Positions 35,089 through 62,036 of a stretch of DNA of 64,000 nt are shown one piece after another. A program made the translations under genes and the position numbers. Source of the DNA: Candidatus Omnitrophota bacterium (GTDB taxonomy: Bacteria; Omnitrophota; Gorgyraeia; Gygaellales; Profunditerraquicolaceae). A model generated the notes under the pieces. It did no database searches. It had not been told where the DNA came from and saw nothing but the letters and a program-made list of their open reading frames with translations. The stretch's first letter is position 1; the number at the start of each line of letters is the position of its first letter. The stretch covers positions 27,423-91,422 of the forward strand of contig JAQURC010000003.1 in the NCBI GenBank assembly GCA_028715785.1, read 5' to 3'.

Positions 35089-36057
<969 letters not shown>

Positions 36058-36062
36058 TTATA

Positions 36063-36100
36063 GATTGCTTCGTCGGGCTTTGCCCTCCTCGCAACGACAC
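36063..36100 (-). repeat. Family B repeat copy B3 (GTGTCGTTGCGAGGAGGGCAAAGCCCGACGAAGCAATC), intergenic between gmd and fcl
   Basis: Read directly. Confidence 0.55.
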
Positions 36101-37563: not shown

Positions 37564-38370
37564 CTAAAAAGGAATGGTGATTCCGGCTTCGATTGCCTGT
37601 TCTTTTTGGCGGGATTTCAGCCTTATAAAGGCTTCAGCATCAAGGTGTTCTAAGAATTTACGGGTCATAGTAAGAGTTGCGCCTAGGGGTTGGCCAAGCT
37701 CGTTCTTAAGCGCGAAAATAACTTTGTTACGGCCAAAGGTTACCTTTGCCCCGAATTCTATTGCCCTGACCTTGCCTTGGCCATAATCCATCTGAAAAGT
37801 TAGCCCTAAATCGCGGCCAAACCTCCATTCACCGTAGAGAATAATTATCTGGCCGGGCGCGCTCAGGCGGCTTTGGCGAATACCTATACCAATGCGATAA
37901 CAGATCTCTCCTTTTTTAGGGTAAAATGTCGGCGATTCAAGCTGGACCTTGAATTCAAAACGCGAAGTTGAGCTGCCTTCAAGTATATAAACAAGGCGAT
38001 TGGCCGAAGGTATGTTCCAATAACCTTTAAAAGTTAATCTGTCGCGGCCGTCTTCTGACGTATATTCGATCTGTTGATTATCATTTAGTTTCCAGCTTCC
38101 TTTAAAGGTGTAGGTTTCAGGCGGGCCTTTGCGGCCGGTAACTTCAAAGCAAAGTTGGTTGTAATCATTGGCGCGCCAGGTGCCTTTGAGTTTAAGTATA
38201 CGCAGATGGGATTGCCCCTGCTCTTCTGAGATTGCTTCGTCGCCTTCGGCTCCTCGCAATGACGGTCTCGTAGGCTTATTCCATGTTTGGATGGTTTCGA
38301 TAACCAGAGCATCGGATTCAGCGGCGATAAAACGTTTACGCAGGGTATTTTTTGGCTTAATTGATTTCAT
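37564..38370 (-). CDS. Hypothetical beta-rich protein, unknown function
   Basis: No recognisable motifs. Carries an in-frame family B repeat insertion (SLRGAEGDEAIS). Confidence 0.3.
   Translation of the reverse strand: MKSIKPKNTLRKRFIAAESDALVIETIQTWNKPTRPSLRGAEGDEAISEEQGQSHLRILKLKGTWRANDYNQLCFEVTGRKGPPETYTFKGSWKLNDNQQIEYTSEDGRDRLTFKGYWNIPSANRLVYILEGSSTSRFEFKVQLESPTFYPKKGEICYRIGIGIRQSRLSAPGQIIILYGEWRFGRDLGLTFQMDYGQGKVRAIEFGAKVTFGRNKVIFALKNELGQPLGATLTMTRKFLEHLDAEAFIRLKSRQKEQAIEAGITIPF
38230..38265 (-). repeat. Family B repeat copy B4, in frame inside the hypothetical gene
   Basis: Reverse complement GTCATTGCGAGGAGCCGAAGGCGACGAAGCAATC. Confidence 0.55.
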
Positions 38371-39673: not shown

Positions 39674-40720
39674 TTAGAGTTTTCTTAGCTTCGCCTCATT
39701 ATTCCTGATCCAGTTAAAAATATCATTCAGGATCGTTATTGCCGGTTTTTGCGGCTGCCATTTTAGTTCCCGGGTAACTTTTTTGTTATCCGTAAGGTAT
39801 ACGGCGATATCGCCCGGACGGTTACGCAAGTTGTGGCCAACTTTAACGTTATTACCGGAAATCTGCCGGCAAAGCGCGGTGGTTTCCAATAAAGAAAGGC
39901 TTATTTCTCTTGCGCCGCCGACATTATAAGTATTGCCGCTTAACTTAGGAAGGCTGTTTGCCTGTATGCCAATTAGCCGGCAAAGGTCATCAACATGTAA
40001 AAGGTCGCGCACCTGTTTGCCTTGCCCGCCAAAACCGATATATTTAAGCGGCTTTTTAAAATAGTGCGCCAGCATCCAATAGGTAAATACCCCCTGGTCA
40101 ACCTTGCCAAACTGCCATGGCCCGGCAACCACTCCGCAGCGGTTCACAACCGCCTTGATCCCGTAGGCGGCAATATACTCTTGCAGGATAAATTCCGACG
40201 CCAGCTTAGTCGCCCCATACAAAGTCTTTGGGCCGGTTAAAGAAAAATCCGTATCGATACCGCTAAAACGCGGCCACTCAAACCTGCTCTTTGATTCAAG
40301 GCGCTTGATCGCGTTTATTTTTTCATAGGGATAAACCCTGCTTGTGGAAAGGAAAATCATCCCCGCTTTACGCTTGCGGCACAACTCAAGGCAGTTAACC
40401 GTGCCCATCAGGTTGGTATCAATAATATAAGATGGATTCTGATAACCCGCCAATACCGACGGCTCGGCTGAACATTCCAATATCAAATCTATATCAAATT
40501 CCAGATCCAGGTCTTTGGGGCGCCGGGCATCACCGCGGATAAACTTAACGCCGTTTTCCTTAAGCCGCGGTAAATTAAATTCGCTTCCCCGGCGGACCAA
40601 GTTATCCAAAACAAAAACTTTAAGCCGCGGATATTCGCGCTTAAAATATACCGCCAGGTTACTGCCGATAAACCCCGCGCCGCCGGTGATTAAAATATTA
40701 TTATACTTCATATTTTCCAC
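39674..40720 (-). CDS. NAD-dependent sugar-nucleotide epimerase/dehydratase (SDR)
   Basis: ILITGGAGFIGSNL. YGATK YxxxK. Confidence 0.75.
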   Translation of the reverse strand: MENMKYNNILITGGAGFIGSNLAVYFKREYPRLKVFVLDNLVRRGSEFNLPRLKENGVKFIRGDARRPKDLDLEFDIDLILECSAEPSVLAGYQNPSYIIDTNLMGTVNCLELCRKRKAGMIFLSTSRVYPYEKINAIKRLESKSRFEWPRFSGIDTDFSLTGPKTLYGATKLASEFILQEYIAAYGIKAVVNRCGVVAGPWQFGKVDQGVFTYWMLAHYFKKPLKYIGFGGQGKQVRDLLHVDDLCRLIGIQANSLPKLSGNTYNVGGAREISLSLLETTALCRQISGNNVKVGHNLRNRPGDIAVYLTDNKKVTRELKWQPQKPAITILNDIFNWIRNNEAKLRKL

Positions 40721-40751
40721 AATATTTGTTTTGTAACTGGTTATCTTTTAT

Positions 40752-40778
40752 GGAATTACATAGACTGTCTATAATTAT
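40752..40778. promoter_or_regulatory. Family F palindromic motif (ATAATTATAGACAGTCTATGTAATTCC in gene sense) about 35-60 nt upstream of the SDR gene start at 40720
   Basis: One of four copies of the (A/G)TAGACAGTNTA(C/T)GTAATTC motif, each just upstream of a gene start. Confidence 0.45.
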
Positions 40779-41814
40779 CGTGAATTTGTTTGATTGTTTC
40801 TTCGATACCAAACTTGTAATTCCAGTTCGGATAATGTGATTTAAATTTAGAGACATCGCTGATCCACCAGATGTGGTCGCCGATACGGTTGGTATCAATA
40901 TACTCATACTCAAACTGTTCCCCGGTAAGTTTTTCGCAAATTTCGATTGCCTCTAAAACCGACACATTGGCAAACCTGCTTCCTCCAATATTATAAACCT
41001 CTCCGGAGCGGGGATTCTTAAAATAGTGATAAAACGCGTTAACCAAATCAAATGAGTGGATATTATCCCTGACCTGTTTTCCTTTATAACCGAAGATCTT
41101 GTATATCCTTCTGGTAATGGCGCATTTAACCAGATATGATAAAAATCCGTGCAGTTCGGCTCCGGAATGCGCCGGTCCGGTAAGACAGCCGCCGCGAAAT
41201 ATGCCTGTTTTAAGATGAAAGTATCTTCCATACTCTTGAACCATTACGTCCGCGGCAACTTTGGAGGCGCCAAAAACTGAATGCAAACAATTATCGATGC
41301 TCATGGTCTCATCGATACCATTATAATATTTATGGTCGCTGGCTATTTCAAAACGCTTTTCTTTTTCAATTAAGGGCAGGCGGTTAGGGGTATCGCCATA
41401 GACTTTATTGGTGGAGGTAAAAATAAAAACTGCCTGCGGGCAGAACCGGCGCAGCGCCTCAAGCAAGACCAAAGTTCCGACCGCGTTTACGCCGAAATCC
41501 ACTGCCGGATCTTTTGCCGCCCAATCATGAGAAGGCTGGGCCGCGGCATGGACAACCAAGGCGATATCCTTGTTAAACTTCTTGAATATGTGATTTATTT
41601 TATGCCGGGAACGGATATCTACGGAATAATGCCGGTAGTTCTTATACTGTTTCTGGAGGCGCTGCTTGTTCCAAAGGATTGAACCGTCTTGGCCAAAAAA
41701 ACTTTTACGCATATTATTATCCATGCCGACGATATCAAAACCTTTTTCAGCAAAAAAAGTGACGGTTTCAGAGCCGATTAAGCCGCATGAGCCTGTTACG
41801 ATAACAACTGACAT
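40756..41814 (-). CDS. NAD-dependent sugar-nucleotide epimerase (SDR, CDP-paratose 2-epimerase-like)
   Basis: [21 protein letters not shown] YxxxK region. Confidence 0.7.
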
Positions 41815-41832
41815 ATTATTCCTTTCCCATCC

Positions 41833-41853
41833 ATAGACAGTTTACGTAATTCC
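41833..41853. promoter_or_regulatory. Family F motif copy (ATAGACAGTTTACGTAATTCC) 20-40 nt upstream of the SDR gene start at 41814
   Basis: Read directly. Confidence 0.45.
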
Positions 41854-41906
41854 ATCAAAGATAAACAGTTACATAAGAAATACTTCGAATGAATTAGGGA
41901 ATATTT

Positions 41907-42926
41907 CTATTTATTATACAGTTTATTAATATCCCCGAGTTTGCTCTTAAGCCACCCCTGATGCTTAAGCGACCAGTCCACAGTAAACTTAAGTCCTTGC
42001 GCGAGTTTAACAATCGGACGCCAACCGAGTTTTTGATAAAGCTTTTTGGAGTCCAAGCTATATCTTATATCATGGCCTAAACGATCCTTAACAAATTCAA
42101 ACCTGTCCTGGCTGACACCCAGGGTTCTTAGCAATAACTTGACTGTGTCAATATTCTTACTTTCGCAAGCGCTGCCTAAATTATAAATCTGGCCCGTTGC
42201 GCCTTTATTCATAACCGCCAAAATTCCTCTGGCGCAATCATCAACATAAAGCCATTCACGCACATTTAGCCCTTTGCCGTAAACCGGAACCTTACCGCAT
42301 CCTATTATTTTCAAGATCGCCAGCGGGATCAACTTCTCAGGATACTGCCATGGCCCGTAATTATTTGAGGGGCGGATGATTATCGCGGGAAATTTATAAG
42401 TCCTGATATACGACTGCGCCAGAAGGTCTGCTGCCGCTTTAGATGCCGCATAAGGACTGTTAGGCTTAACGGGAGAATTTTCGTCAAACTTGCCATTGGC
42501 AATTTCTCCGTAAACTTCATCGGTACTGATAAAAATAAATTTCTTTACCCCAAACTTACGGCTGGTATCCATAAGAATCTGCGTACCCTTAATATTGGTT
42601 TCAATAAACGGCGAGGCATCGTTAATACTGCGGTCAACGTGGCTCTCGGCGGCAAAATGCACGACGATATCCGGCTTTTCTCTAGCAAATATTGTTTCTA
42701 TCTGTTTTCTATTGCAAATATCGGTTTTATAAAATTTGAATTTTCCCTCCACCTCCGCAAGGCGCTTAAGGTCTCCTGCGTAAGTAAGTTTATCGGCTAT
42801 AATAACCGAGCCGTAGGGGAGGTTTAAACCTCCCCTACGGCAATCACCGAGAATAAGCCTCACAAAGGCGCTGCCGATAAACCCCGCGCCGCCGGTAACT
42901 AGGATTTTAGGTATTCTTTTACGCAT
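41907..42926 (-). CDS. rfbB: dTDP-glucose 4,6-dehydratase
   Basis: [16 protein letters not shown]...ADKLTYAGDL...FIFISTDEVYGE...SPYAASKAAADLL matches RfbB. Contains an in-frame palindromic insertion ([12 protein letters not shown]). Confidence 0.9.
   Translation of the reverse strand: MRKRIPKILVTGGAGFIGSAFVRLILGDCRRGGLNLPYGSVIIADKLTYAGDLKRLAEVEGKFKFYKTDICNRKQIETIFAREKPDIVVHFAAESHVDRSINDASPFIETNIKGTQILMDTSRKFGVKKFIFISTDEVYGEIANGKFDENSPVKPNSPYAASKAAADLLAQSYIRTYKFPAIIIRPSNNYGPWQYPEKLIPLAILKIIGCGKVPVYGKGLNVREWLYVDDCARGILAVMNKGATGQIYNLGSACESKNIDTVKLLLRTLGVSQDRFEFVKDRLGHDIRYSLDSKKLYQKLGWRPIVKLAQGLKFTVDWSLKHQGWLKSKLGDINKLYNK
42811..42840. repeat. Family C perfect 30-nt palindrome CCGTAGGGGAGGTTTAAACCTCCCCTACGG, in frame inside rfbB
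   Basis: Read directly. GTAG...CTAC ends around a GTTTAAAC core. Flanked by ...ACCGAG on both sides. Confidence 0.65.
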
Positions 42927-43720
42927 TCTTCTAAAACTGAATTAATATTCCTGGTTTTAAAACCGGTTTTCTCAAGCTTGGTTGTGGACAAAATCAGGTT
43001 GGTCCTGGCTAAACCCAGCTTTTTTAAAGCAACCACTTTGAATTTAAATCCCGGAACGTATCTTTGATAAACCTTCATAAGCTCAGGGTAACGCAAGCCG
43101 CCTTTGTTTACCACGTTATATACCCCTTTAGCGTCAATTTTGAGCAAATGTTTAACCGCATTGACAAAATCAGGGATATAGGTTACAGAGTTGGGGATAT
43201 CAATCACTTTCTTGTATTTTATAAGTTTATCCAACACATTCTTAGGGTGTTTGGCATTAAGCAGGGGTATGCGGATCCTCGGAATAAGTATATTGTAATC
43301 CCGGGCAAGCGCCTCAAGCGCCCTTTCCGCATATATTTTGCTGCGGCTGTAGAATAACCCGAAGAAATAATCCCGGCTGTCTTCTTTTATCGGCTTGTTT
43401 TTCCTATAATCGTAATTAAAGATACACCCGCTGCTTATATGCACAAGCTTGATGTTGTTGCGCAGGCATATTTCAGCCAGGATTACCGGGACAAAACTAT
43501 TTGCCAACAATGTTGTGTCTTTTTCCAGCTCACAGTCATCAACATTGCGCCTGCCGGTAATACCGATGCAATTAATGATTATTTTTGGGTTGTATTTCTT
43601 AACCAGCTTTTCGGCATCGCTAAAATAATTGATCATTGAGCCATCAATCCTGCAATCAAGTTCTTTTTGCAGCCTTTGGCCGATAAATCCTTCCCCTAAA
43701 ATTAAAATATTATTATGCAT
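42899..43720 (-). CDS. dTDP-4-dehydrorhamnose reductase-like SDR (RmlD family)
   Basis: 273 aa. [11 protein letters not shown] Rossmann motif and YSRSKIYAE YxxxK. Adjacent to rfbA and rfbB. Confidence 0.6.
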
Positions 43721-44579
43721 CCTTAAGCAGATCCTTCAAGTATTGCCCATAGCTGGTTGGTGTATGGCCGGCAAGCTTTAGCAATTGCGTTTTATTAATA
43801 TACCCCATGCGATAGGCCACTTCTTCAATACAACCAATCTTTAATCCCTGCCTGTCTTCAATTGTCTTAATAAAAACCGAGGCATCAATTAAAGACTCAA
43901 ATGTTCCGGTATCTAACCAGGCATGGCCGCGGCCGAGAAATTTTAATTTAAGCTTACCCTCTTTAATATACTCGTTATTTACCGCAGTGATTTCAAGTTC
44001 GCCCCTTTTAGATGGCTTAATCTTTTTAGCAATGTTTACCACGTCATTATCATAAAAATATATCCCTGAAACTGCCCAGTTAGACCTGGGTCTCTTCGGC
44101 TTCTCTGCTATCGCGATTACCCTGCATTTCTTATCAAATTCAAGGACGCCATAGCGCCGAGGATCCTTAACATAATAACCGAAAATTATTCCGCCTTTTT
44201 TTAGCTTAGCCGATTGCTGAAGTAACCTTGTAAGGTCCTGGCCGTAAAATATATTATCCCCTAAAATAAGGCATACCTTATCGGAACCGATAAATTCCTC
44301 GCCGATTATAAAGCTCTGGGCAATGCCTTTTGGCTCGGGTTGAGTCGCATAAGTAAGCTTGATCCCTAAGCTGTGGCCATCGTCAAGAAGATCTTTAAAT
44401 CTTGGGGTGTCTTTTGGAGTTGAAATTATCAGGATATCGCGTATACCGGCAAGCATTAAAACCGATAAAGGATAATAAACCATCGGTTTGTCGTAAATCG
44501 GCAGTAACTGCTTGCAAACGCTTTTAGTGATTGGATAAAGCCGGGTGGCTTTACCGCCGGCCAGAATTATCCCCTTCAT
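43713..44579 (-). CDS. rfbA: Glucose-1-phosphate thymidylyltransferase
   Basis: [54 protein letters not shown] is canonical RmlA. Start placed at this Met. The 12-codon upstream extension in the ORF track reads through a palindrome and is probably not translated. Confidence 0.9.
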
Positions 44580-44583
44580 CCGG

Positions 44584-44859
44584 CTACCCCTCCTGCCTGC
44601 CGGCAGGCAGGCCATATTTAAAATATAAAAATATTAATATCGATAAACTCACTAAAGTTACCGCGTTTGCCAATATGATTATCGGATCCTTGCGGGAAAT
44701 CCCGTAAATTATCCACAGTAAAACGCCGGCAGAAAGTTGGAACAGCATAACCGGGCTGACATCTTTAACAGACCGCATCCGTATAGACCTGGCTATCTGC
44801 GGAATGAAGGAAAACGTGGTTAAAGTGGCGGCAATTGCACCAATCAGCGTCCAAAACAT
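44584..44859 (-). CDS. SemiSWEET-family sugar transporter (PQ-loop, 3 TM)
   Basis: 91 aa. [19 protein letters not shown]-loop motif. [26 protein letters not shown] closely resembles known bacterial SemiSWEETs. The C-terminal tail GLPAGRQEG is a read-through of a 20-nt palindrome. Confidence 0.7.
44590..44609. repeat. Perfect 20-nt palindrome CCTGCCTGCCGGCAGGCAGG between the SemiSWEET and rfbA genes
   Basis: Read directly. Confidence 0.6.
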
Positions 44860-44900
44860 AATTAATGATTATATCTCTAAACCCCTGAAAAATAAAGGTA

Positions 44901-44926
44901 ATAATTATAGACAGTGTACGTAATTC
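44901..44926. promoter_or_regulatory. Family F motif copy (ATAATTATAGACAGTGTACGTAATTC) upstream of the SemiSWEET start and downstream of RAYT; the sense strand contains TATAAT
   Basis: Read directly. Inverted relative to the F copy on the other side of the RAYT gene. Confidence 0.45.
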
Positions 44927-44942
44927 TATTAAAGTTAGATGG

Positions 44943-45629
44943 TTACGAAACAAATATTGCGGCTTTCCGGCCTTGCCTTCTCGGAAAATAATGCGCGCCT
45001 GTCTTCACCAGCCTGCGCAAGAAATCTTGATCACCGCGAGGAATCTCTATATTCGAGAAATAGGCCTCCTTTTTATTATCAAAAACACTCAAGAATTCTT
45101 TATAAGCTGCCTGCCGTCCAACAGCCTCTTTTCCGAAATCTTCAAAATCAGGGCTAACCCGCGTTATGCCATCCTCTTGCCCCAAACAATAAAATCGCGC
45201 ACTACTATGCGCATATTCACAGGCCTCTATAACCATCCCCGCGCGCACCGGATTTCTCTCTACATATCTGCCGCAATTTTTCAAATACAAATCCTTTTGT
45301 ATCGGCTGCAATTTAAACCTGCCTTGCCATAAAAAACCCACTGCGTTATATTGCTTATGGTAATAATGGCTATACGCCCGATGTAATCCTGCCATAAATT
45401 TCGAAATTAGCTCCGGGTATTCAAATTCAACCACAAGATGGTAATGATTTGGCATAATGACCCAATGATATATTTTTGCATCAAACCTATTGCTATACTC
45501 GCAAAGCAGCCTCTCGAAATGACCAAAATCCTCAGATTCTTGGAAAATTACTTTGCGCCCACTGCTTCGGCTAAACGCATGATAAACTAATGATTGTTGC
45601 AACTGATGCTTACGCGCGTACGATGGCAT
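44943..45629 (-). CDS. IS200/IS605-like HuH tyrosine transposase of REP-associated (RAYT) type
   Basis: HuH motif VIMPNHYHLVVEF. C-terminal AHSSARFY region resembles the RAYT catalytic Tyr/HSS signature. Single gene with no tnpB, flanked by inverted family F motifs. Confidence 0.7.
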   Translation of the reverse strand: MPSYARKHQLQQSLVYHAFSRSSGRKVIFQESEDFGHFERLLCEYSNRFDAKIYHWVIMPNHYHLVVEFEYPELISKFMAGLHRAYSHYYHKQYNAVGFLWQGRFKLQPIQKDLYLKNCGRYVERNPVRAGMVIEACEYAHSSARFYCLGQEDGITRVSPDFEDFGKEAVGRQAAYKEFLSVFDNKKEAYFSNIEIPRGDQDFLRRLVKTGAHYFPRRQGRKAAIFVS

Positions 45630-45736
45630 TGCCTTTTCTCCTTCTGTTACAACTGACGCAGAAGATAGAAAAATCTAACAATATTTATTTTAGGAGAAAA
45701 TATTTCTTACAGATATGATTGGGGAATATAGGGTTA

Positions 45737-45753
45737 GGTAAACTGTCTACAAG
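45737..45753. promoter_or_regulatory. Family F motif partial copy (sense CTTGTAGACAGTTTACC) upstream of RAYT, in inverted orientation to the copy at 44901
   Basis: Read directly. Confidence 0.4.
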
Positions 45754-45775
45754 ATAAGTTTTTAGAATTTTAAGA

Positions 45776-46942
45776 TTAAATTCTAATCTTTAAAAATCTG
45801 CGGGAACCGGCCTTGAGGATGCCGGCTTCAGCCGGGACAAAATCGTCTTTTTCGATTTTTACGTTGTTAAAGCTGACTGCCCCCTGTTTTATCAGCCTGC
45901 GCGCCTCATTACCGCTGGCCGCTAAGTTACTTTCGGTAAGAATAACTAAAATGGTTTTCCTGCCATCAGTTTTAAAGACAGGCATATCTTGAGGAGTTTC
46001 TTTTTGGGAAAAAACGCGGGAAAATTCTTCCGCTTCTTTTTCCGCGGCCCCGGCAGAGTGGTATTGAGTGATAATAATCTTGGCCAAATTAATTTTTGCA
46101 TCTTTTGGATGCATCTGCCTGACTTTAGCTAAATCCTCATCGGTCAACAATTCATAATATTTAAACATCATCTCGTCGGAGATTGACATGATTTTACCGA
46201 ATATCTCTTTAGCCGGTTCATTAATGCCGATATAATTACCGCAAGACTTGCTCATTTTCTGGATGCCATCGGTGCCTTCTAAGAGCGGCATGGTCAGAAC
46301 CACCTGCTGCGGCTGGTTGAAATCTTTTTGGAATTCTCTTCCTACCAGCAAATTAAATATCTGGTCCGTTCCGCCGATTTCCACGTCAGCCTCAAGCATG
46401 ACCGAATCATAACCCTGCATTAGAGGATAAACAAACTCTAAAATCGAAATATTTTCTCCGTTTGTAAAACGTTTCTTAAAATCATCACGGGCCAGCATTT
46501 GGGAAACCGAAGCGTGGGTAGTAAGCTGCAGCATTTGGACCCCTGACATTTTTTCAAACCATTTGCTGTTAAAAACTATTTTGAGCTTGCGCATATCCAG
46601 GATCTTAGCTACCTGCTTCTTGTAGGTTTGGGCGTTGGCGGCCACCTCCTGTCTGGTGAGTTGTTTTCTGATTTCCGAGCGGCCGCTGGGATCCCCGATC
46701 CTGCCGGTAAAATCGCCGATAAGAAAATAAACTTCATGCCCTAAATCCTGGAATTGACGCAGCTTTCTTAAGAGCACGGTATGGCCCAGATGTAAATCCG
46801 GCGCGGTAGGATCAAACCCGGCTTTAATTTTTAAGGGGCGCTTAGTTTTAATGCTCTGCTCCAGCTTCTTACGAAGCTCATCTTCAGAGATTATCTCTAC
46901 GGCGCCACGCTTCATAATATCTAATTGCTTTTCGATATCCAT
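45776..46942 (-). CDS. tyrS: Tyrosine--tRNA ligase
   Basis: [23 protein letters not shown]-region and KMSKS motif. C-terminal S4-like domain. Confidence 0.95.
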
Positions 46943-46954
46943 AGTTATCCACAG

Positions 46955-46982
46955 CCGTAGGGGAGGTTTAAACCTCCCCTAC
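46955..46982. repeat. Family C palindrome copy (CCGTAGGGGAGGTTTAAACCTCCCCTAC), intergenic between rpsA and tyrS
   Basis: Identical core to the copy inside rfbB. Confidence 0.65.
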
Positions 46983-46989
46983 ATATTCA

Positions 46990-48531
46990 TTATAAACGGG
47001 CTGTCAGGCCGATTTTTGCCTGCTCCACATCCACTTTGATTACCTTAACCTTGATTTTATCGCCGGGTTTTAAATTGGCGGCTGTTTCTTTTTCGATCTC
47101 GCTGGAATAAATCAAGCCTTCCAGTTCGCTGTCGATCTTGGCAAATACGCCGAATTCGGTAAGGCTGGATACCTCCACCTCCAATTGCGTATCCAAAGGA
47201 TATTTCTCGGCGATTTTTGGCCAGGGATTCTCCTGCAGTTGCTTTAAACCTAAAGCGATCCTGCGGTTGGCAGAATCAACCGAAAGAATGGAAACATCCA
47301 CCTTCTGCCCCTTTTTTAAAACATCCTGCGGATGGCCGATCCTTCTGGTCCAGGAAATATCGGAAACATGGATCATGCCTTCCAAGTTAGAATCCAGCTC
47401 CACAAACGCCCCATACTCGGTAAAACCGCGGACCTTGCCGGATACGCTTGTGCCAACCGGATATTTTGATTCCGCTTCCAGCCAGGGGTTCTGCTCCAGT
47501 TGTTTCAAGCTAAGGGAGATCCTGCGGGAATCTTTTTCGATGCTCAAGATCTGGGTTTCCACCATATCGCCTACGGCAAACATCTCGCCCGGGTTATTCA
47601 CCCGCTTGGTCCAGGAGATCTCGGAAACATGAATAAGGCCTTCAATGCCTTTTTCCAGTTCCACGAAAACTCCGTAAGGCAGGATATTGACTACCTTGCC
47701 TTTTACCTTTGAGCCGACGCTGAATTTGTTCTCGATATCCTTCCATGGATCAGAAAGCCTCTGCTTCAGGCCCAAAGAAACTTTACCCGAAGCCTGGTCG
47801 AGATTTAAGATCATCACTTCGATCTTATCGCCGATAGCCACGATCTCGGAAGGATGGCTGATCTTTGACCAGGACATATCCGTAATATGCAGCAGGCCGT
47901 CAAGGCCGCCTAAATCAATAAAGGCGCCGAAGTCGGTAATCGCTTTGACCAGGCCGGGATAAATATTGCCGATCTTCAATTCGCCCCAAATCTTGCTTTT
48001 AGCCACATCCCTGTCCGCCTGCACTGCTTCGCGGCGGCTGACAATGATGGAACGGCGCAGGTTATTGACTTTAACGATCTTAAATTTGAATATCTTATAT
48101 AAGATATCCTTATCGGCCATATTGCGGAAAGAGGAAAGCGAACTGGGCAGGAACCCTTCGATACCCATAATATCGACCAGGAATCCGCCTTTGACTTTCT
48201 TGACCGGCTTGCCTTCAACCAAAGTGCCGTCATTGGATAATTTAACGATTTTATCCCAGCCTTGCATGCGCATGGCTTTTTCGCGCGAGAGGGTCATAAC
48301 GCCGGCGTCATTTTCCATGCTTTCCAGCAAAAACTCCATCTCTTTACCGACGGCTAAATCCGCGGCGCTGAATTCGGTAATCGCAACTATGCCTTCGGAT
48401 TTAAAACCCACATCCACCAGGACCTCTTTACTCTTGATTTCGACGATCTTGCCGGTTACAACCTGGCCTTCCTTCAAAACCTTGATACTTTGATTGTACA
48501 TCTGCTCTAATTCTGCTCTAGTATCCGACAT
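46990..48531 (-). CDS. rpsA: 30S ribosomal protein S1
   Basis: Six tandem S1 domains with recurring GxV.G.V......FGAFV motifs. Confidence 0.9.
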   Translation of the reverse strand: MSDTRAELEQMYNQSIKVLKEGQVVTGKIVEIKSKEVLVDVGFKSEGIVAITEFSAADLAVGKEMEFLLESMENDAGVMTLSREKAMRMQGWDKIVKLSNDGTLVEGKPVKKVKGGFLVDIMGIEGFLPSSLSSFRNMADKDILYKIFKFKIVKVNNLRRSIIVSRREAVQADRDVAKSKIWGELKIGNIYPGLVKAITDFGAFIDLGGLDGLLHITDMSWSKISHPSEIVAIGDKIEVMILNLDQASGKVSLGLKQRLSDPWKDIENKFSVGSKVKGKVVNILPYGVFVELEKGIEGLIHVSEISWTKRVNNPGEMFAVGDMVETQILSIEKDSRRISLSLKQLEQNPWLEAESKYPVGTSVSGKVRGFTEYGAFVELDSNLEGMIHVSDISWTRRIGHPQDVLKKGQKVDVSILSVDSANRRIALGLKQLQENPWPKIAEKYPLDTQLEVEVSSLTEFGVFAKIDSELEGLIYSSEIEKETAANLKPGDKIKVKVIKVDVEQAKIGLTARL

Positions 48532-48564
48532 TTCTAATTACTTCCTTTCTTTATATTTTATATT

Positions 48565-48646
48565 GTGTCATTGCGAGCCCTGAAAGGGCGAAGCAATCTA
48601 TCTTTTATGAGATTGCCGCGTCGCCTTTGGCTCCTCGCAATGACAC
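48565..48646. repeat. REPIN-like doublet: two family B copies in inverted orientation (48565-48598 plus strand, 48611-48646 minus strand) separated by 12 nt
   Basis: GTGTCATTGCGAGCCCTGAAAGGGCGAAGCAATC ... GATTGCCGCGTCGCCTTTGGCTCCTCGCAATGACAC. Intergenic between plsC and rpsA. Confidence 0.65.
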
Positions 48647-59741: not shown

Positions 59742-60343
59742 TTGGATTTCAAAGCTCCTACCAAGACAAAATCCGCGACATCATAGCTTCCGATATTCCT
59801 TTTCTGCGCGTTACTTAATTCAAAATTTGAAAAATCCTTGAAAAATTCTTTATCTGACTTTAAGTTATCCAACAGCTTGTTAACCAGGACAAGCTCCTCC
59901 TTTTGTAACGAAATAACCGAACCCTGAATAATGAGATTCTGCTTGCCCAGCGACAGGTCATTAAACCAGACTCCGGCGGGTAAATTCAGGCTTAATTTAT
60001 TTAATTTCTGCGCCCAGAGAATCCTTTGGCTGATTAAAAACTGCGTCAGGCCGGCATCCTGAGAAACCGCTGAATACTGCCGGTTGAATTCATCCAGTAT
60101 TTTTTTCCGCGGCTCAAGGGCCGTCCATTTACGCTTTAAAGAAGCCAGCTGTCCGCCTTTAGCTATGCCGATTACCGCAAAATAAAGATGCGCTAAAATA
60201 AATAATCCCAGTAAAACAGGAATGGCATAAATAAACAACTTGTCCCGGCTAACCCCTGTCATGGTCGTTACCATAACCTGCTCAAGGGTTTTTTCCTTAG
60301 TTTTAACTCTTAGTTCCTGGGGTAATAAATTTATCTCGATCAT
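59738..60343 (-). CDS. pilN: Pilus assembly protein PilN
   Basis: MIEINLLPQELR canonical PilN N-terminus. Confidence 0.7.
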   Translation of the reverse strand: MIEINLLPQELRVKTKEKTLEQVMVTTMTGVSRDKLFIYAIPVLLGLFILAHLYFAVIGIAKGGQLASLKRKWTALEPRKKILDEFNRQYSAVSQDAGLTQFLISQRILWAQKLNKLSLNLPAGVWFNDLSLGKQNLIIQGSVISLQKEELVLVNKLLDNLKSDKEFFKDFSNFELSNAQKRNIGSYDVADFVLVGALKSK

Positions 60344-61446
60344 CTTTGGCGTAAAGCCAGGCCTACGGCAACATTAAACTGACCGGAAAAATTGTTTAAT
60401 CTCTGCGCGTCTATTTTATCGGAGATCTTTATCTGCTTAAACGCATCCCAAGGCTCTACCGGGATGCCTAAACAGGCAGATAACATCTCGGTTAAACCGG
60501 CTATTTTACTCCCTCCGCCGCTTAAGAATATCTTGGCCACGCTTGAGGAGTTCTGGCTTTCGTAATAATCAAATGACGTGCGGATCTCTGCCGCTAAATT
60601 TATAAGCACGCTCTCCACGCCGGCCTTAACCTTATTGGCTCTTTCAGGATCCGGATTGTGGCTTTGGCTATCCGTAGCCAAACCACCGCCCTCTGGCTTG
60701 TGGCTTTGGCTATCTGTAGCCAAACCACCGCCCTCTGGCTTGATTTTAAGCGCTTCGGCGGCTTTAAAATCCAGCTCAAAAATATCCATAATCTTCCTGG
60801 TAAAATTTGCTCCCGCGGAATGGATATCGCGGCTTAAACGCGGTATCCTGTTATCAAGGATATTGACATTGCTGATTGAAGCCCCGATATTCAAAAGGCA
60901 AATGGACTTGTTCTCCGGCACATCGATTTTAGGATAATTAAAATTAAACGCGTTAACCAGCGCTATCGAATCAATATCAATGATATTAGGCCTTAATCCG
61001 GCATTTTCAAGGGTTTTATGCCTTTGCCGCATCAATTCTTTTTTGATCGCGGCGATCAAGACAAGCATCTTGTTTTCAGGCAAGTCGTTTTTGAGGATTT
61101 CGGCATCTAGATCAACCTCGTCGATGGAAAAAGGAATATGTTTCTGGGCCTCGAACTTAAGCGCCTGTTTAAGCTCGGCTTTATTCATCCGCAGAAAATT
61201 TACATAACGGATAACCGTGGATGAGCCGCAAAAAGAAATGTTTACCAGATCGGCATCCTGGGCGTGCCTGATCTTCTTCAGCGCCTCCGTCGGATCAAGC
61301 TGGCCCTCCTCAAAGTCAAAATTAACCAGCTCGACAGCTTCGTTAATTTTTAATTTTACGCATTTGATCGACTGCGTGCCGATATCCAGGCCGATACTGA
61401 ACTTTTCTTTTGCTTTAGGAAATCCTATTTTAGAAAAAATATTCAT
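60340..61446 (-). CDS. pilM: Type IV pilus assembly ATPase-like protein PilM (actin-like fold), with an in-frame 28-aa tandem-repeat insertion
   Basis: IGLDIGTQSIKCVKL N-terminus. Insertion (PEGGGLATDSQSHK)x2 encoded by a 42-bp tandem repeat. Confidence 0.8.
   Translation of the reverse strand: MNIFSKIGFPKAKEKFSIGLDIGTQSIKCVKLKINEAVELVNFDFEEGQLDPTEALKKIRHAQDADLVNISFCGSSTVIRYVNFLRMNKAELKQALKFEAQKHIPFSIDEVDLDAEILKNDLPENKMLVLIAAIKKELMRQRHKTLENAGLRPNIIDIDSIALVNAFNFNYPKIDVPENKSICLLNIGASISNVNILDNRIPRLSRDIHSAGANFTRKIMDIFELDFKAAEALKIKPEGGGLATDSQSHKPEGGGLATDSQSHNPDPERANKVKAGVESVLINLAAEIRTSFDYYESQNSSSVAKIFLSGGGSKIAGLTEMLSACLGIPVEPWDAFKQIKISDKIDAQRLNNFSGQFNVAVGLALRQR
60657..60740. repeat. Family E: 42-bp tandem direct repeat x2 (GTGGCTTTGGCTATC(C/T)GTAGCCAAACCACCGCCCTCTGGCTT), each unit with a TTTGGCTA-TCCG-TAGCCAAA hairpin, inside pilM
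   Basis: Read directly. One mismatch between the two units. Confidence 0.7.
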
Positions 61447-61956: not shown

Positions 61957-62036
61957 GAGGTAGTTCTATTTTTCTGCACTTTGTAGCTGACGTTTAAACG
62001 TCAGCTACTCTGTGGATAAAAAATAGAAACGTTCCC
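61957..62036. repeat. Family D-like hairpin element (GAGGTAGTTCTATTTTTC...GAAAAATAGAAACGTTCCC) with a nested family C-like perfect palindrome GTAGCTGACGTTTAAACGTCAGCTAC (61983-62008)
   Basis: Read directly. Intergenic between the TPR-protein gene and the pilin-like gene. Confidence 0.6.

Follow-up and report, generated by a model that had tools for sequence, protein, structure and literature searches.

The 64-kb stretch of Candidatus Omnitrophota DNA analysed here (contig JAQURC010000003.1, positions 27,423 to 91,422; hereafter the window) carries a single gene for a Y1 transposase-like protein, bracketed by two inverted copies of a 52-nt repeat. We consider it probable (roughly 0.78) that this locus is a unit of the TIRYT/TIRtron type, belonging to group 1 of the REP-associated tyrosine transposases (RAYTs; REP, repetitive extragenic palindrome) and similar to subclass 2.1 of the TnpAY1 proteins, in which a domesticated Y1 gene is accompanied by its cognate repeats. 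RAYT-type genes are the best studied bacterial transposases that have stopped moving themselves and persist vertically together with miniature repeats. The branch associated with terminal inverted repeats (TIRs), known as TIRYT, group 1 or subclass 2.1, is the largest and the least understood, and has been described either as being without cognate repeats or as the most similar to insertion sequences (ISs). A domesticated transposase with a mini-repeat is a kind of system that has already been described; the Omnitrophota example is new, and our literature search found no paper linking Omnitrophota with RAYT, REPIN, TIRYT or IS200. The features of the window on which the argument leans are the following.

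44943..45629, minus strand: Y1 gene, 228 aa, predicted HUH/Y1 single-strand DNA nuclease-ligase of TnpAY1 class 2, TIRYT-like

45699..45750, minus strand: TIR-A, the upstream terminal repeat, in sense orientation, the 5' box being the part farther from the gene (GTAGACAGTTTACCTAACCCTATATTCCCCAATCATATCTGTAAGAAATATT); 12 orthologous loci have it in the same position

44907..44958, plus strand: TIR-B, the downstream terminal repeat, inverted with respect to TIR-A

40721..40772, minus strand: solo copy c1, in the gap between two epimerase genes; its end lies 13 nt ahead of the ATG of ORF 39674..40720 (nhmmer E=1e-13)

41833..41884, plus strand: solo copy c2, between an rfbB-like gene and the epimerase gene 40756..41814 (nhmmer E=4e-14)

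45640..45679, minus strand: conserved leader between TIR-A and the start codon

A preliminary description of this DNA, made from the sequence alone, had pointed to a 228-aa open reading frame (ORF) with an HUH motif and an AHSS region. Both are indeed present on the minus strand, and that description was right to see a lone gene of RAYT-like rather than IS200-like character. The protein contains PNHYHLVV and AHSSARFY. Its HUH motif corresponds to H62-Y63-H64, its catalytic tyrosine to Y122 within YVERNP and its SS pair to S142-S143, and a C-terminal tail is present; H62/Y63/H64, Y122 and N126/P127 do not vary among 36 aligned homologues. The Y---NP motif (Y122-V-E-R-N126-P127) places the protein in class 2, whereas class 1 (IS200) has Y---Q. 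The Pfam model Y1_Tnp (PF01797) is matched with E=8e-15 (55 bits for a cut-off of 23). The NCBIfam model REP_Tyr_transpos (NF047646) gives 62.1 bits (E=5e-17), below its curated cut-off of 80 bits, compared with 21 bits for the NCBIfam IS200 model, whose cut-off is 55; the protein is related to the NF047646 family yet lies outside its curated equivalog. Since a sequence search of the PDB returned only a weak match to 4er8 (E=0.1), a fold search was needed to confirm it. With an AlphaFold2 model of the protein (pLDDT 84), Foldseek matched 4er8, 2vic and 2xm3, all with a probability of 1.00, and the top match was the E. coli TnpAREP 4er8, over 166 aligned columns versus about 117 for the TnpA proteins of IS608 and ISDra2. 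The model has a helical tail (residues 144-205), and proteobacterial plasmid proteins carrying NHVH or NHFH, WE, and YIELNP or YVEANP align with the Y1 protein over the full length, including this tail.

Homologues number 4139 at E<1e-5, and those bearing names belong to Candidatus Omnitrophota; among the plasmid and phage homologues none exceeds 36% identity. The gene has no tnpB partner; tyrS lies upstream of it, and a SemiSWEET/PQ-loop gene and then rfbA lie downstream. No second Y1 gene was found in the window by tblastn, and the sampled metagenome-assembled genomes (MAGs) have one gene-bearing locus each. At the C-terminus, the Y1 family shows a conserved basic P-R-R-x-G-R-P stretch that we read as AT-hook-like; in the clade of tyrS-adjacent orthologues the C-terminus reads RQGRKAAIFVS (ORF end 44943-44975), the codons of the final residues belonging to the 3' box of TIR-B.

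The 52-nt repeat consists of a 5' box, rTAGACAGTnTAyGTAA, and a 3' box, GTTAyrwAAsAAATAyt, separated by about 20 variable nucleotides. Its 123 unique copies align with zero gaps, and the 5' boundary is sharp. The 3' box of TIR-B extends over the stop codon and the 4-5 codons preceding it in the Y1 ORF (..AIFVS*); over 13 orthologous loci the TIR-B boxes are invariant, with a mean pairwise identity of 80%. The four window copies (nhmmer E-values from 1e-10 to 2e-16) all lie within 5 kb of the Y1 gene, and a profile search found no further 52-nt copy in the remaining 59 kb of the window. The inverted bracketing of the gene by the TAGACAGTnTAC motif had been proposed beforehand, with enrichment of cognate repeats near the gene named as a check. 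The bracket is real and conserved in most orthologues, and the four window copies do cluster near the gene; only the 5' box had been seen, the element being 52 nt long. Matches to the 12-nt motif lie at 44908-44919 (plus strand, TAGACAGTGTAC), 45738-45749 (minus strand, TAGACAGTTTAC), 40760-40771 (minus strand) and 41834-41845 (plus strand), four in 64 kb where 0.32 would be expected; four matches were reached in only 1 of 100 shuffles. Taken as an isolated inverted repeat, the flanking pair is unremarkable (25-nt arms, 80% complementary; other pairs of 17-19 nt reach 74-83%). The motif is thus significant as a family and not as an isolated pair.

A strong argument for connecting repeat and protein comes from the sequences of the ends, which drift with the protein, as would be expected of sites and the enzyme that recognizes them. 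About 555 metagenomic loci were found overall, and 42 of 80 were looked at, spanning 92-34% protein identity. In most of these 42 loci the terminal box gives the best inverted match of one flank to the other, and its sequence changes with protein identity as follows.

Identity of at least 73%: 5' box GTAGACAGT

Identity of 53-60%: 5' box mAAGACGCT or ATAGACGCT

Identity of 48-51%: 5' box GTAGACGTT or GTAGACGGT, also given as GTAGACGy

Identity of 34-41%: 5' box GGGGACGs or GGTGACrs

The series of terminal boxes runs from GTAGACAG to GGGGACGs in homologues down to about 34% identity, and the 3' box (GTTAC..AAT) persists down to about 40%. Four homologues of 55-62% identity, located in four unrelated contexts, are each bracketed by inverted ends of the 52-nt type whose 5' box is AAGACGCT or TAGACGCT. 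The lineages of ends can be told apart by this box (GTAGACAG, AAGACGCT, GGGGACGC), and in one genome that carries two box variants (L128), the variant around the gene is that of the gene's own lineage. Along this series, the GTAG found at the end of the repeat seems to derive from the GGGG-type box that TIR-associated relatives have at their termini, and not to be the REP tag of E. coli.

The position of the Y1 gene points to vertical inheritance. Looking for the exact Y1 protein in public assemblies gave no match. The loci fetched for comparison come from genomes other than that of the window, the nearest being about 82-88% identical in DNA. Orthologues of 67-91% identity occupy the same tyrS-adjacent locus in Candidatus Omnitrophota MAGs. 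In the three loci on long contigs (L001, L004 and L005; orthologues of 79-90%), the gene order is rpsA, tyrS, Y1 gene, accessory genes or none, and SemiSWEET, with rfbA, rfbD, rfbB and epimerase genes beyond; the 67% orthologue in L117 also lies directly downstream of tyrS. Comparison of the Y1 gene with six orthologues gave dN/dS values of 0.08-0.12 at dS 0.6-1.2. This synteny and a dN/dS of about 0.1 at such distances show that strong purifying selection has acted on a gene that stayed at one locus while neutral divergence approached saturation. Such behaviour has been described for domesticated RAYTs, unlike ISs (PMC5581495). RAYTs sensu stricto are expected to be single-copy and vertically inherited, with a housekeeping-like distribution; of these traits, vertical inheritance is found here.

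The leader that separates TIR-A from the start codon is also conserved. It comprises a box, GTTAGATTT, at 45671-45679 and a hairpin, CTTCTG-CGTCAGTTGTAA-CAGAAGG, at 45640-45664. The Shine-Dalgarno sequence falls within the 3' arm of this hairpin, and its loop keeps CGTC. Across 15 aligned homologues neither the GTTAGA nor the CGTC stretch varies, and for this alignment RNAalifold predicts 11 pairs, six of them with compensatory changes. This predicted hairpin probably acts as a translational brake that limits synthesis of the Y1 protein. It is reminiscent of the hairpin over the ribosome-binding site described for IS200. A search for known RNA families gave no match at E<=1 across 40000-47500.

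Beyond the window, an exact 16-mer scan over 185,579 species genomes (one per species) detected at least 118 stretches with the 16-mer, the copy numbers per genome being lower bounds. Of the 118 stretches listed, 53 are from Omnitrophota MAGs, and every multi-hit stretch listed is from Omnitrophota; since by our own arithmetic 596 Gb should contain about 1100 16-mer matches by chance, the isolated hits scattered over other taxa can be put down to this background. A profile search of the fetched loci gave 146 hits, corresponding to 128 unique copies; of 126 copies, 114 lie between genes. Among the 18 RAYT-bearing loci, every one with sufficient sequence has a sense copy upstream of the gene and an inverted copy downstream, L038 and L078 being exceptions in the orientation of the upstream copy. 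The 14 tight pairs are all convergent (tail-to-tail), with 7-45 nt between the 3' boxes and an outer span of 122-163 nt, and no tight divergent pair occurs among the fetched loci; this polarity is also that of the pair around the Y1 gene. These doublets, found in relatives and not in the window itself, fold as single-stranded DNA (-13 to -30 kcal/mol, z -2.5 to -10). They resemble REPINs in having two inverted units, a short spacer, one hairpin and gene flanks of the same family; the units themselves are not REPs.

Indeed, we rejected the presence of a hairpin within the single repeat unit on three grounds. Single-stranded folds of the four window copies, on both strands, have z-scores from -1 to +0.4 relative to shuffled sequences; RNAalifold on the 123 copies returned zero consensus structure; and the candidate GTAA...TTAC stem shows no covariation, 497 of 500 shuffles scoring at least as high. 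Because a conserved hairpin is absent, single copies are not REPs, and the preliminary suggestion that the gene is flanked by REP-like palindromes had to be abandoned.

Some copies are variable in their presence. L004 and L009 carry a doublet at the coaD/rpe junction that the window, L001 and L005 do not have. The c2 site is occupied in the window, L056, L005 and L117 and empty in L045 and L100, the closest relatives, and orthologous copies of c1 are present in L035, L045 and L056. The filled and empty sites compared at the coaD/rpe and rfbB/epimerase junctions have diverged too far for a target or a duplication to be recognized in them. In L117 (1-8000), eight copies of the end occupy successive intergenic gaps in the orientation + - + - + - + -, along the order tyrS-Y1-SemiSWEET-rfbA-rfbD-rfbB-epimerase-ORF6N-epimerase, and an inverted pair encloses Y1 and SemiSWEET.

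Genes of the RAYT type flanked by long TIRs instead of REPs were reported by Di Nocera et al. (2013; PMC3733652) under the names TIRYT and TIRtron. Some of these TIRs overlap the 3' end of the gene, most of those described share GGGGWSAS, and some form moderately abundant singles, dimers or groups (PMC3733652). The Omnitrophota locus resembles them in its non-REP inverted ends around a RAYT-like gene, in the overlap with the 3' end and in the occurrence of singles and dimers. It differs in its box, which in this clade is rTAGACAG, GTAGACAG being two substitutions away from GGGGACAG, and in its host, Candidatus Omnitrophota not being among those described (PMC3733652). Neither GTAGACAG nor ATAGACAG, the forms present in this clade, is a literal GGGGWSAS, and the distant GGGGACGs is one position off.

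In the classification of Quentin et al. (2018; PMC6006769), TIRYTs are subclass 2.1 and correspond to group 1 of Bertels. Subclass 2.1 proteins have NH[YF]H or NHVH, W[EQ], Y[IV]ELNP or Y[IV]HLNP, SS in the proximal tail, a median length of 238 aa and no REP nearby (PMC6006769 Table 1), and a C-terminal helix-turn-helix (HTH) of the Bac_DnaA_C, HTH_23 or HTH_28 type has been reported for them (PMC6006769). The Y1 protein has NHYH, WQ, YVERNP (one position off), SS and 228 aa, with a low copy number, and differs in that no HTH was detected by Pfam; judged by its motifs and alignment, it fits the motif definition of the subclass. As the boxes of the GGGGACGs relatives lie near the published consensus, from which GTAGACAG remains two substitutions distant, and as both the subclass 2.1 motifs and the full-length alignment are found, the sequences argue that TIRYT/TIRtron, and not classical RAYT/REP, is the correct category (PMC3733652, PMC6006769).

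Group 1 has been described as the most IS-like group of RAYTs, without association with REPINs (PMC5581495), whereas the present clade is syntenic and has hairpin-forming doublets. With RAYT/REPIN systems (TnpAREP, 4ER8; REPINs of P. fluorescens, PMC3116915) it shares a lone, vertically inherited Y1 gene, inverted dispersed repeats, doublets that fold and a correspondence of different gene lineages to different cognate repeats. It departs from them in its unit, a 52-nt non-palindromic element with two boxes instead of a 20-40-nt GTAG-tagged hairpin, and in an abundance far below the hundreds of copies typical of REPINs. Assignment to the RAYTs sensu stricto (Bertels groups 2 and 3) was rejected: the units beside the gene are not REPs and do not fold.

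By analogy with TnpAREP and the TnpA of IS608, from which we infer binding, cleavage and a single-strand mechanism, the Y1 enzyme would recognize the boxes of the ends specific to its lineage. One DNA strand would be cut and rejoined through Tyr122 and a metal bound by the HUH motif. Doublets would fold on single-stranded DNA into hairpins in which the two 5' boxes form the foot, and would be moved or copied as non-autonomous units; solo copies may be half-elements or remnants. The Y1 gene itself would no longer move, and the leader hairpin over the ribosome-binding site would probably keep its expression low.

Several observations weigh against interpreting the locus as a domesticated Y1 gene with its cognate repeats. 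Known Y1 enzymes recognize a hairpin, and the solo copies have none. The score of the protein (62.1 bits) falls below the curated equivalog threshold of NF047646, and a Pfam scan (E<=0.1) detected Y1_Tnp alone, with no HTH domain in the C-terminal tail, as it also did for two full-length proteobacterial homologues. The copy number is modest, with four copies in the 64-kb window and at least a few to about seven blocks per MAG. In L038 (6812-6867) and L078 (3642-3697) the upstream end is in the opposite orientation, with an intact Y1 gene of 83-85% identity; in L078 the conserved leader hairpin is deleted and the end abuts the ribosome-binding site, so that the canonical bracket is not obligatory. 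Several solo copies have been kept at orthologous sites over long divergence, which is compatible also with a host function. Finally, it is from sequence comparison that we infer that the Y1 protein, and not another factor, moves the repeats, and their movement at present is conjectural.

These points lead to the first alternative, in which the 52-nt repeat serves the host as a regulatory or structural site, for example one bound by a chromosomal protein, independently of the Y1 protein, and the bracket around the Y1 gene is incidental to a repeat-rich region. Two boxes at a fixed spacing without a hairpin would suit a protein that binds double-stranded DNA, and both the conservation of solo copies at orthologous intergenic sites and the eight copies in the gaps of a single operon in L117 could be explained in this way. 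Nevertheless, we regard this explanation as unlikely. The repeat shows no orientation bias at gene starts (its 3' side is directed towards a gene end in 70 cases and towards a gene start in 45), and tight pairs are always convergent. The ends change with the protein lineage across unrelated contexts, the downstream end overlaps the ORF terminus throughout the clade, and in L128 it is the variant matching the gene lineage that brackets the gene. A main role as promoter or terminator was rejected for the same want of orientation bias, and no convincing -35/-10 register was found by eye.

A second alternative is that the locus is an ordinary, active IS of the IS200/IS605 family that moves its own gene. 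The Y1_Tnp domain with intact catalytic residues, the defined ends and the miniature derivatives would all be expected of such an element, as would the homologues of 55-62% identity in other contexts, often beside toxin-antitoxin (TA) genes and once beside an rve integrase. Moreover, L001 holds a second unit bounded by both ends with a different cargo. The HUH/Y1 catalytic fold is indeed shared with the TnpA proteins of IS608 and ISDra2. However, the protein has Y---NP and not Y---Q (PMC6006769), there is neither tnpB nor any subterminal hairpin, and the gene occupies the same locus at dS 0.6-1.2 with dN/dS of about 0.1, with one gene-bearing locus per sampled MAG and plasmid or phage homologues of at most 36% identity. 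The Y---Q motif, the subterminal hairpins on one strand, the tnpB gene and the multi-copy behaviour of IS200/IS605 elements are not seen in the locus data. Membership of subclass 1.1 was rejected accordingly (ends without hairpins, no tnpB, one copy in the window, 21 bits with the IS200 model against 55), and an active IS appears very improbable.

Equally hard to sustain is the proposal that the cognate elements are GTAG...CTAC palindromes, seeded into genes in the manner of the E. coli RAYT/REP system. The palindromes in question form a separate REP-like family, termed family C, with three perfect copies in the window.

42813-42838, 46957-46982 and 61983-62008: perfect 26-nt GTAG...CTAC palindromes, GTAGGGGAGGTTTAAACCTCCCCTAC twice and the variant GTAGCTGACGTTTAAACGTCAGCTAC

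The two identical copies lie 1.3 and 2.1 kb from the Y1 gene, one of them in frame in the rfbB-like ORF; compensatory stem variants occur in related loci, and both types of repeat start with GTAG. The preliminary description took families C and E for REPs linked to the Y1 gene and proposed their recent seeding into genes, two claims that are not supported. The 52-nt ends abut the Y1 gene and the palindromes do not: they never flank it directly, either in the window or in five related loci of 20 kb and 8 kb. The palindromes and family E have only the GTAG start in common with the ends, and since in relatives the GTAG of the ends grades to GGGG, the likeness to the E. coli tag is probably fortuitous. 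In L045 both the rfbB-like intragenic palindrome and the tyrS/rpsA intergenic one lie at orthologous sites (L100 has two identical copies), so that the intragenic insertion is old and does not reflect recent activity. No RAYT gene cognate to the palindromes was found in the window.

The intragenic palindrome (42809-42841) lies in frame within ORF 41907..42926 (minus strand), in a hypervariable loop (aa 27-42) of the rfbB-like dTDP-glucose 4,6-dehydratase. In L001 the same loop contains a different insert, VIARRGAPKQSQ, which looks like a translated member of a CATTGCGAG...GAAGCAATC repeat family; this loop seems to tolerate repeat insertions. A third family of repeats, imperfect palindromes of the form GTCATTGCGAG-loop-CGAAGCAATC, occurs at 48564-48598, 48608-48646, 35433-35467, 36055-36100 and 38221-38263. 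It forms an inverted doublet in the gap upstream of rpsA and is unrelated to the 52-nt ends. Family E corresponds to a 42-nt in-frame tandem duplication (60650-60733, 93% identity) in the pilM-like ORF 60340..61446 (minus strand), which encodes KPEGGGLATDSQSH twice and contains the GTAGCCAAA hairpin.

In relatives, the ends also bound accessory genes. The second unit of L001 (11292-11888) has both end-A and end-B, the Y1 leader and, at its right end, the last ~10 nt of the Y1 ORF, with a 94-aa HTH (Xre-type) gene in place of the Y1 gene; it looks like a derivative in which the cargo was swapped or replaced internally. ORF6N-domain genes sharing 71% identity are bounded by ends at differing positions of the operon in L117 (5355-6043) and L004 (18638-19359); at the position of the L117 gene, the window has only solo copy c1. 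Cassettes with AbiEii and ORF6N are separated in L004 by five ends of the same orientation, and in the tyrS clade BrnT/BrnA has a copy of the downstream end on either side, both in the same orientation. TA modules (BrnT/BrnA, ParE with an antitoxin, Phd/ParE, MazEF) adjoin genes of the Y1 family in several unrelated lineages, ParE or BrnT modules being located directly downstream of homologues in other lineages. The sites are as follows.

L001 10791-11289: TA module

L005 10262-10787: TA module

L131 6814-7316: TA module

L128 5142-5679: TA module

L136 1-348: TA module

The window carries none of the BrnT/BrnA, HTH, AbiEii and ORF6N cassettes. It is tempting to suggest that the Y1 enzyme, acting on ends of the same strand, could excise and insert units made of a gene plus an end, as an integron-like cassette platform based on an HUH enzyme, a doubtful proposal to which we give little credence at present. 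If it were true, the ends would do more than breed miniature doublets and would take part in the shuffling of cassettes near the Y1 gene and the sugar-nucleotide operon.

With respect to the TIRYTs already described (PMC3733652), the new elements are the graded change of ends and protein, the strict polarity of the doublets and the fixed syntenic locus. The locus and its relatives provide a clean example of the TIR-associated branch in an uncultivated phylum. For the annotation of these MAGs, the label 'transposase' is not evidence of an active IS. The natural series of ends and proteins offers a ready design for studying how Y1 enzymes may recognize ends without hairpins.

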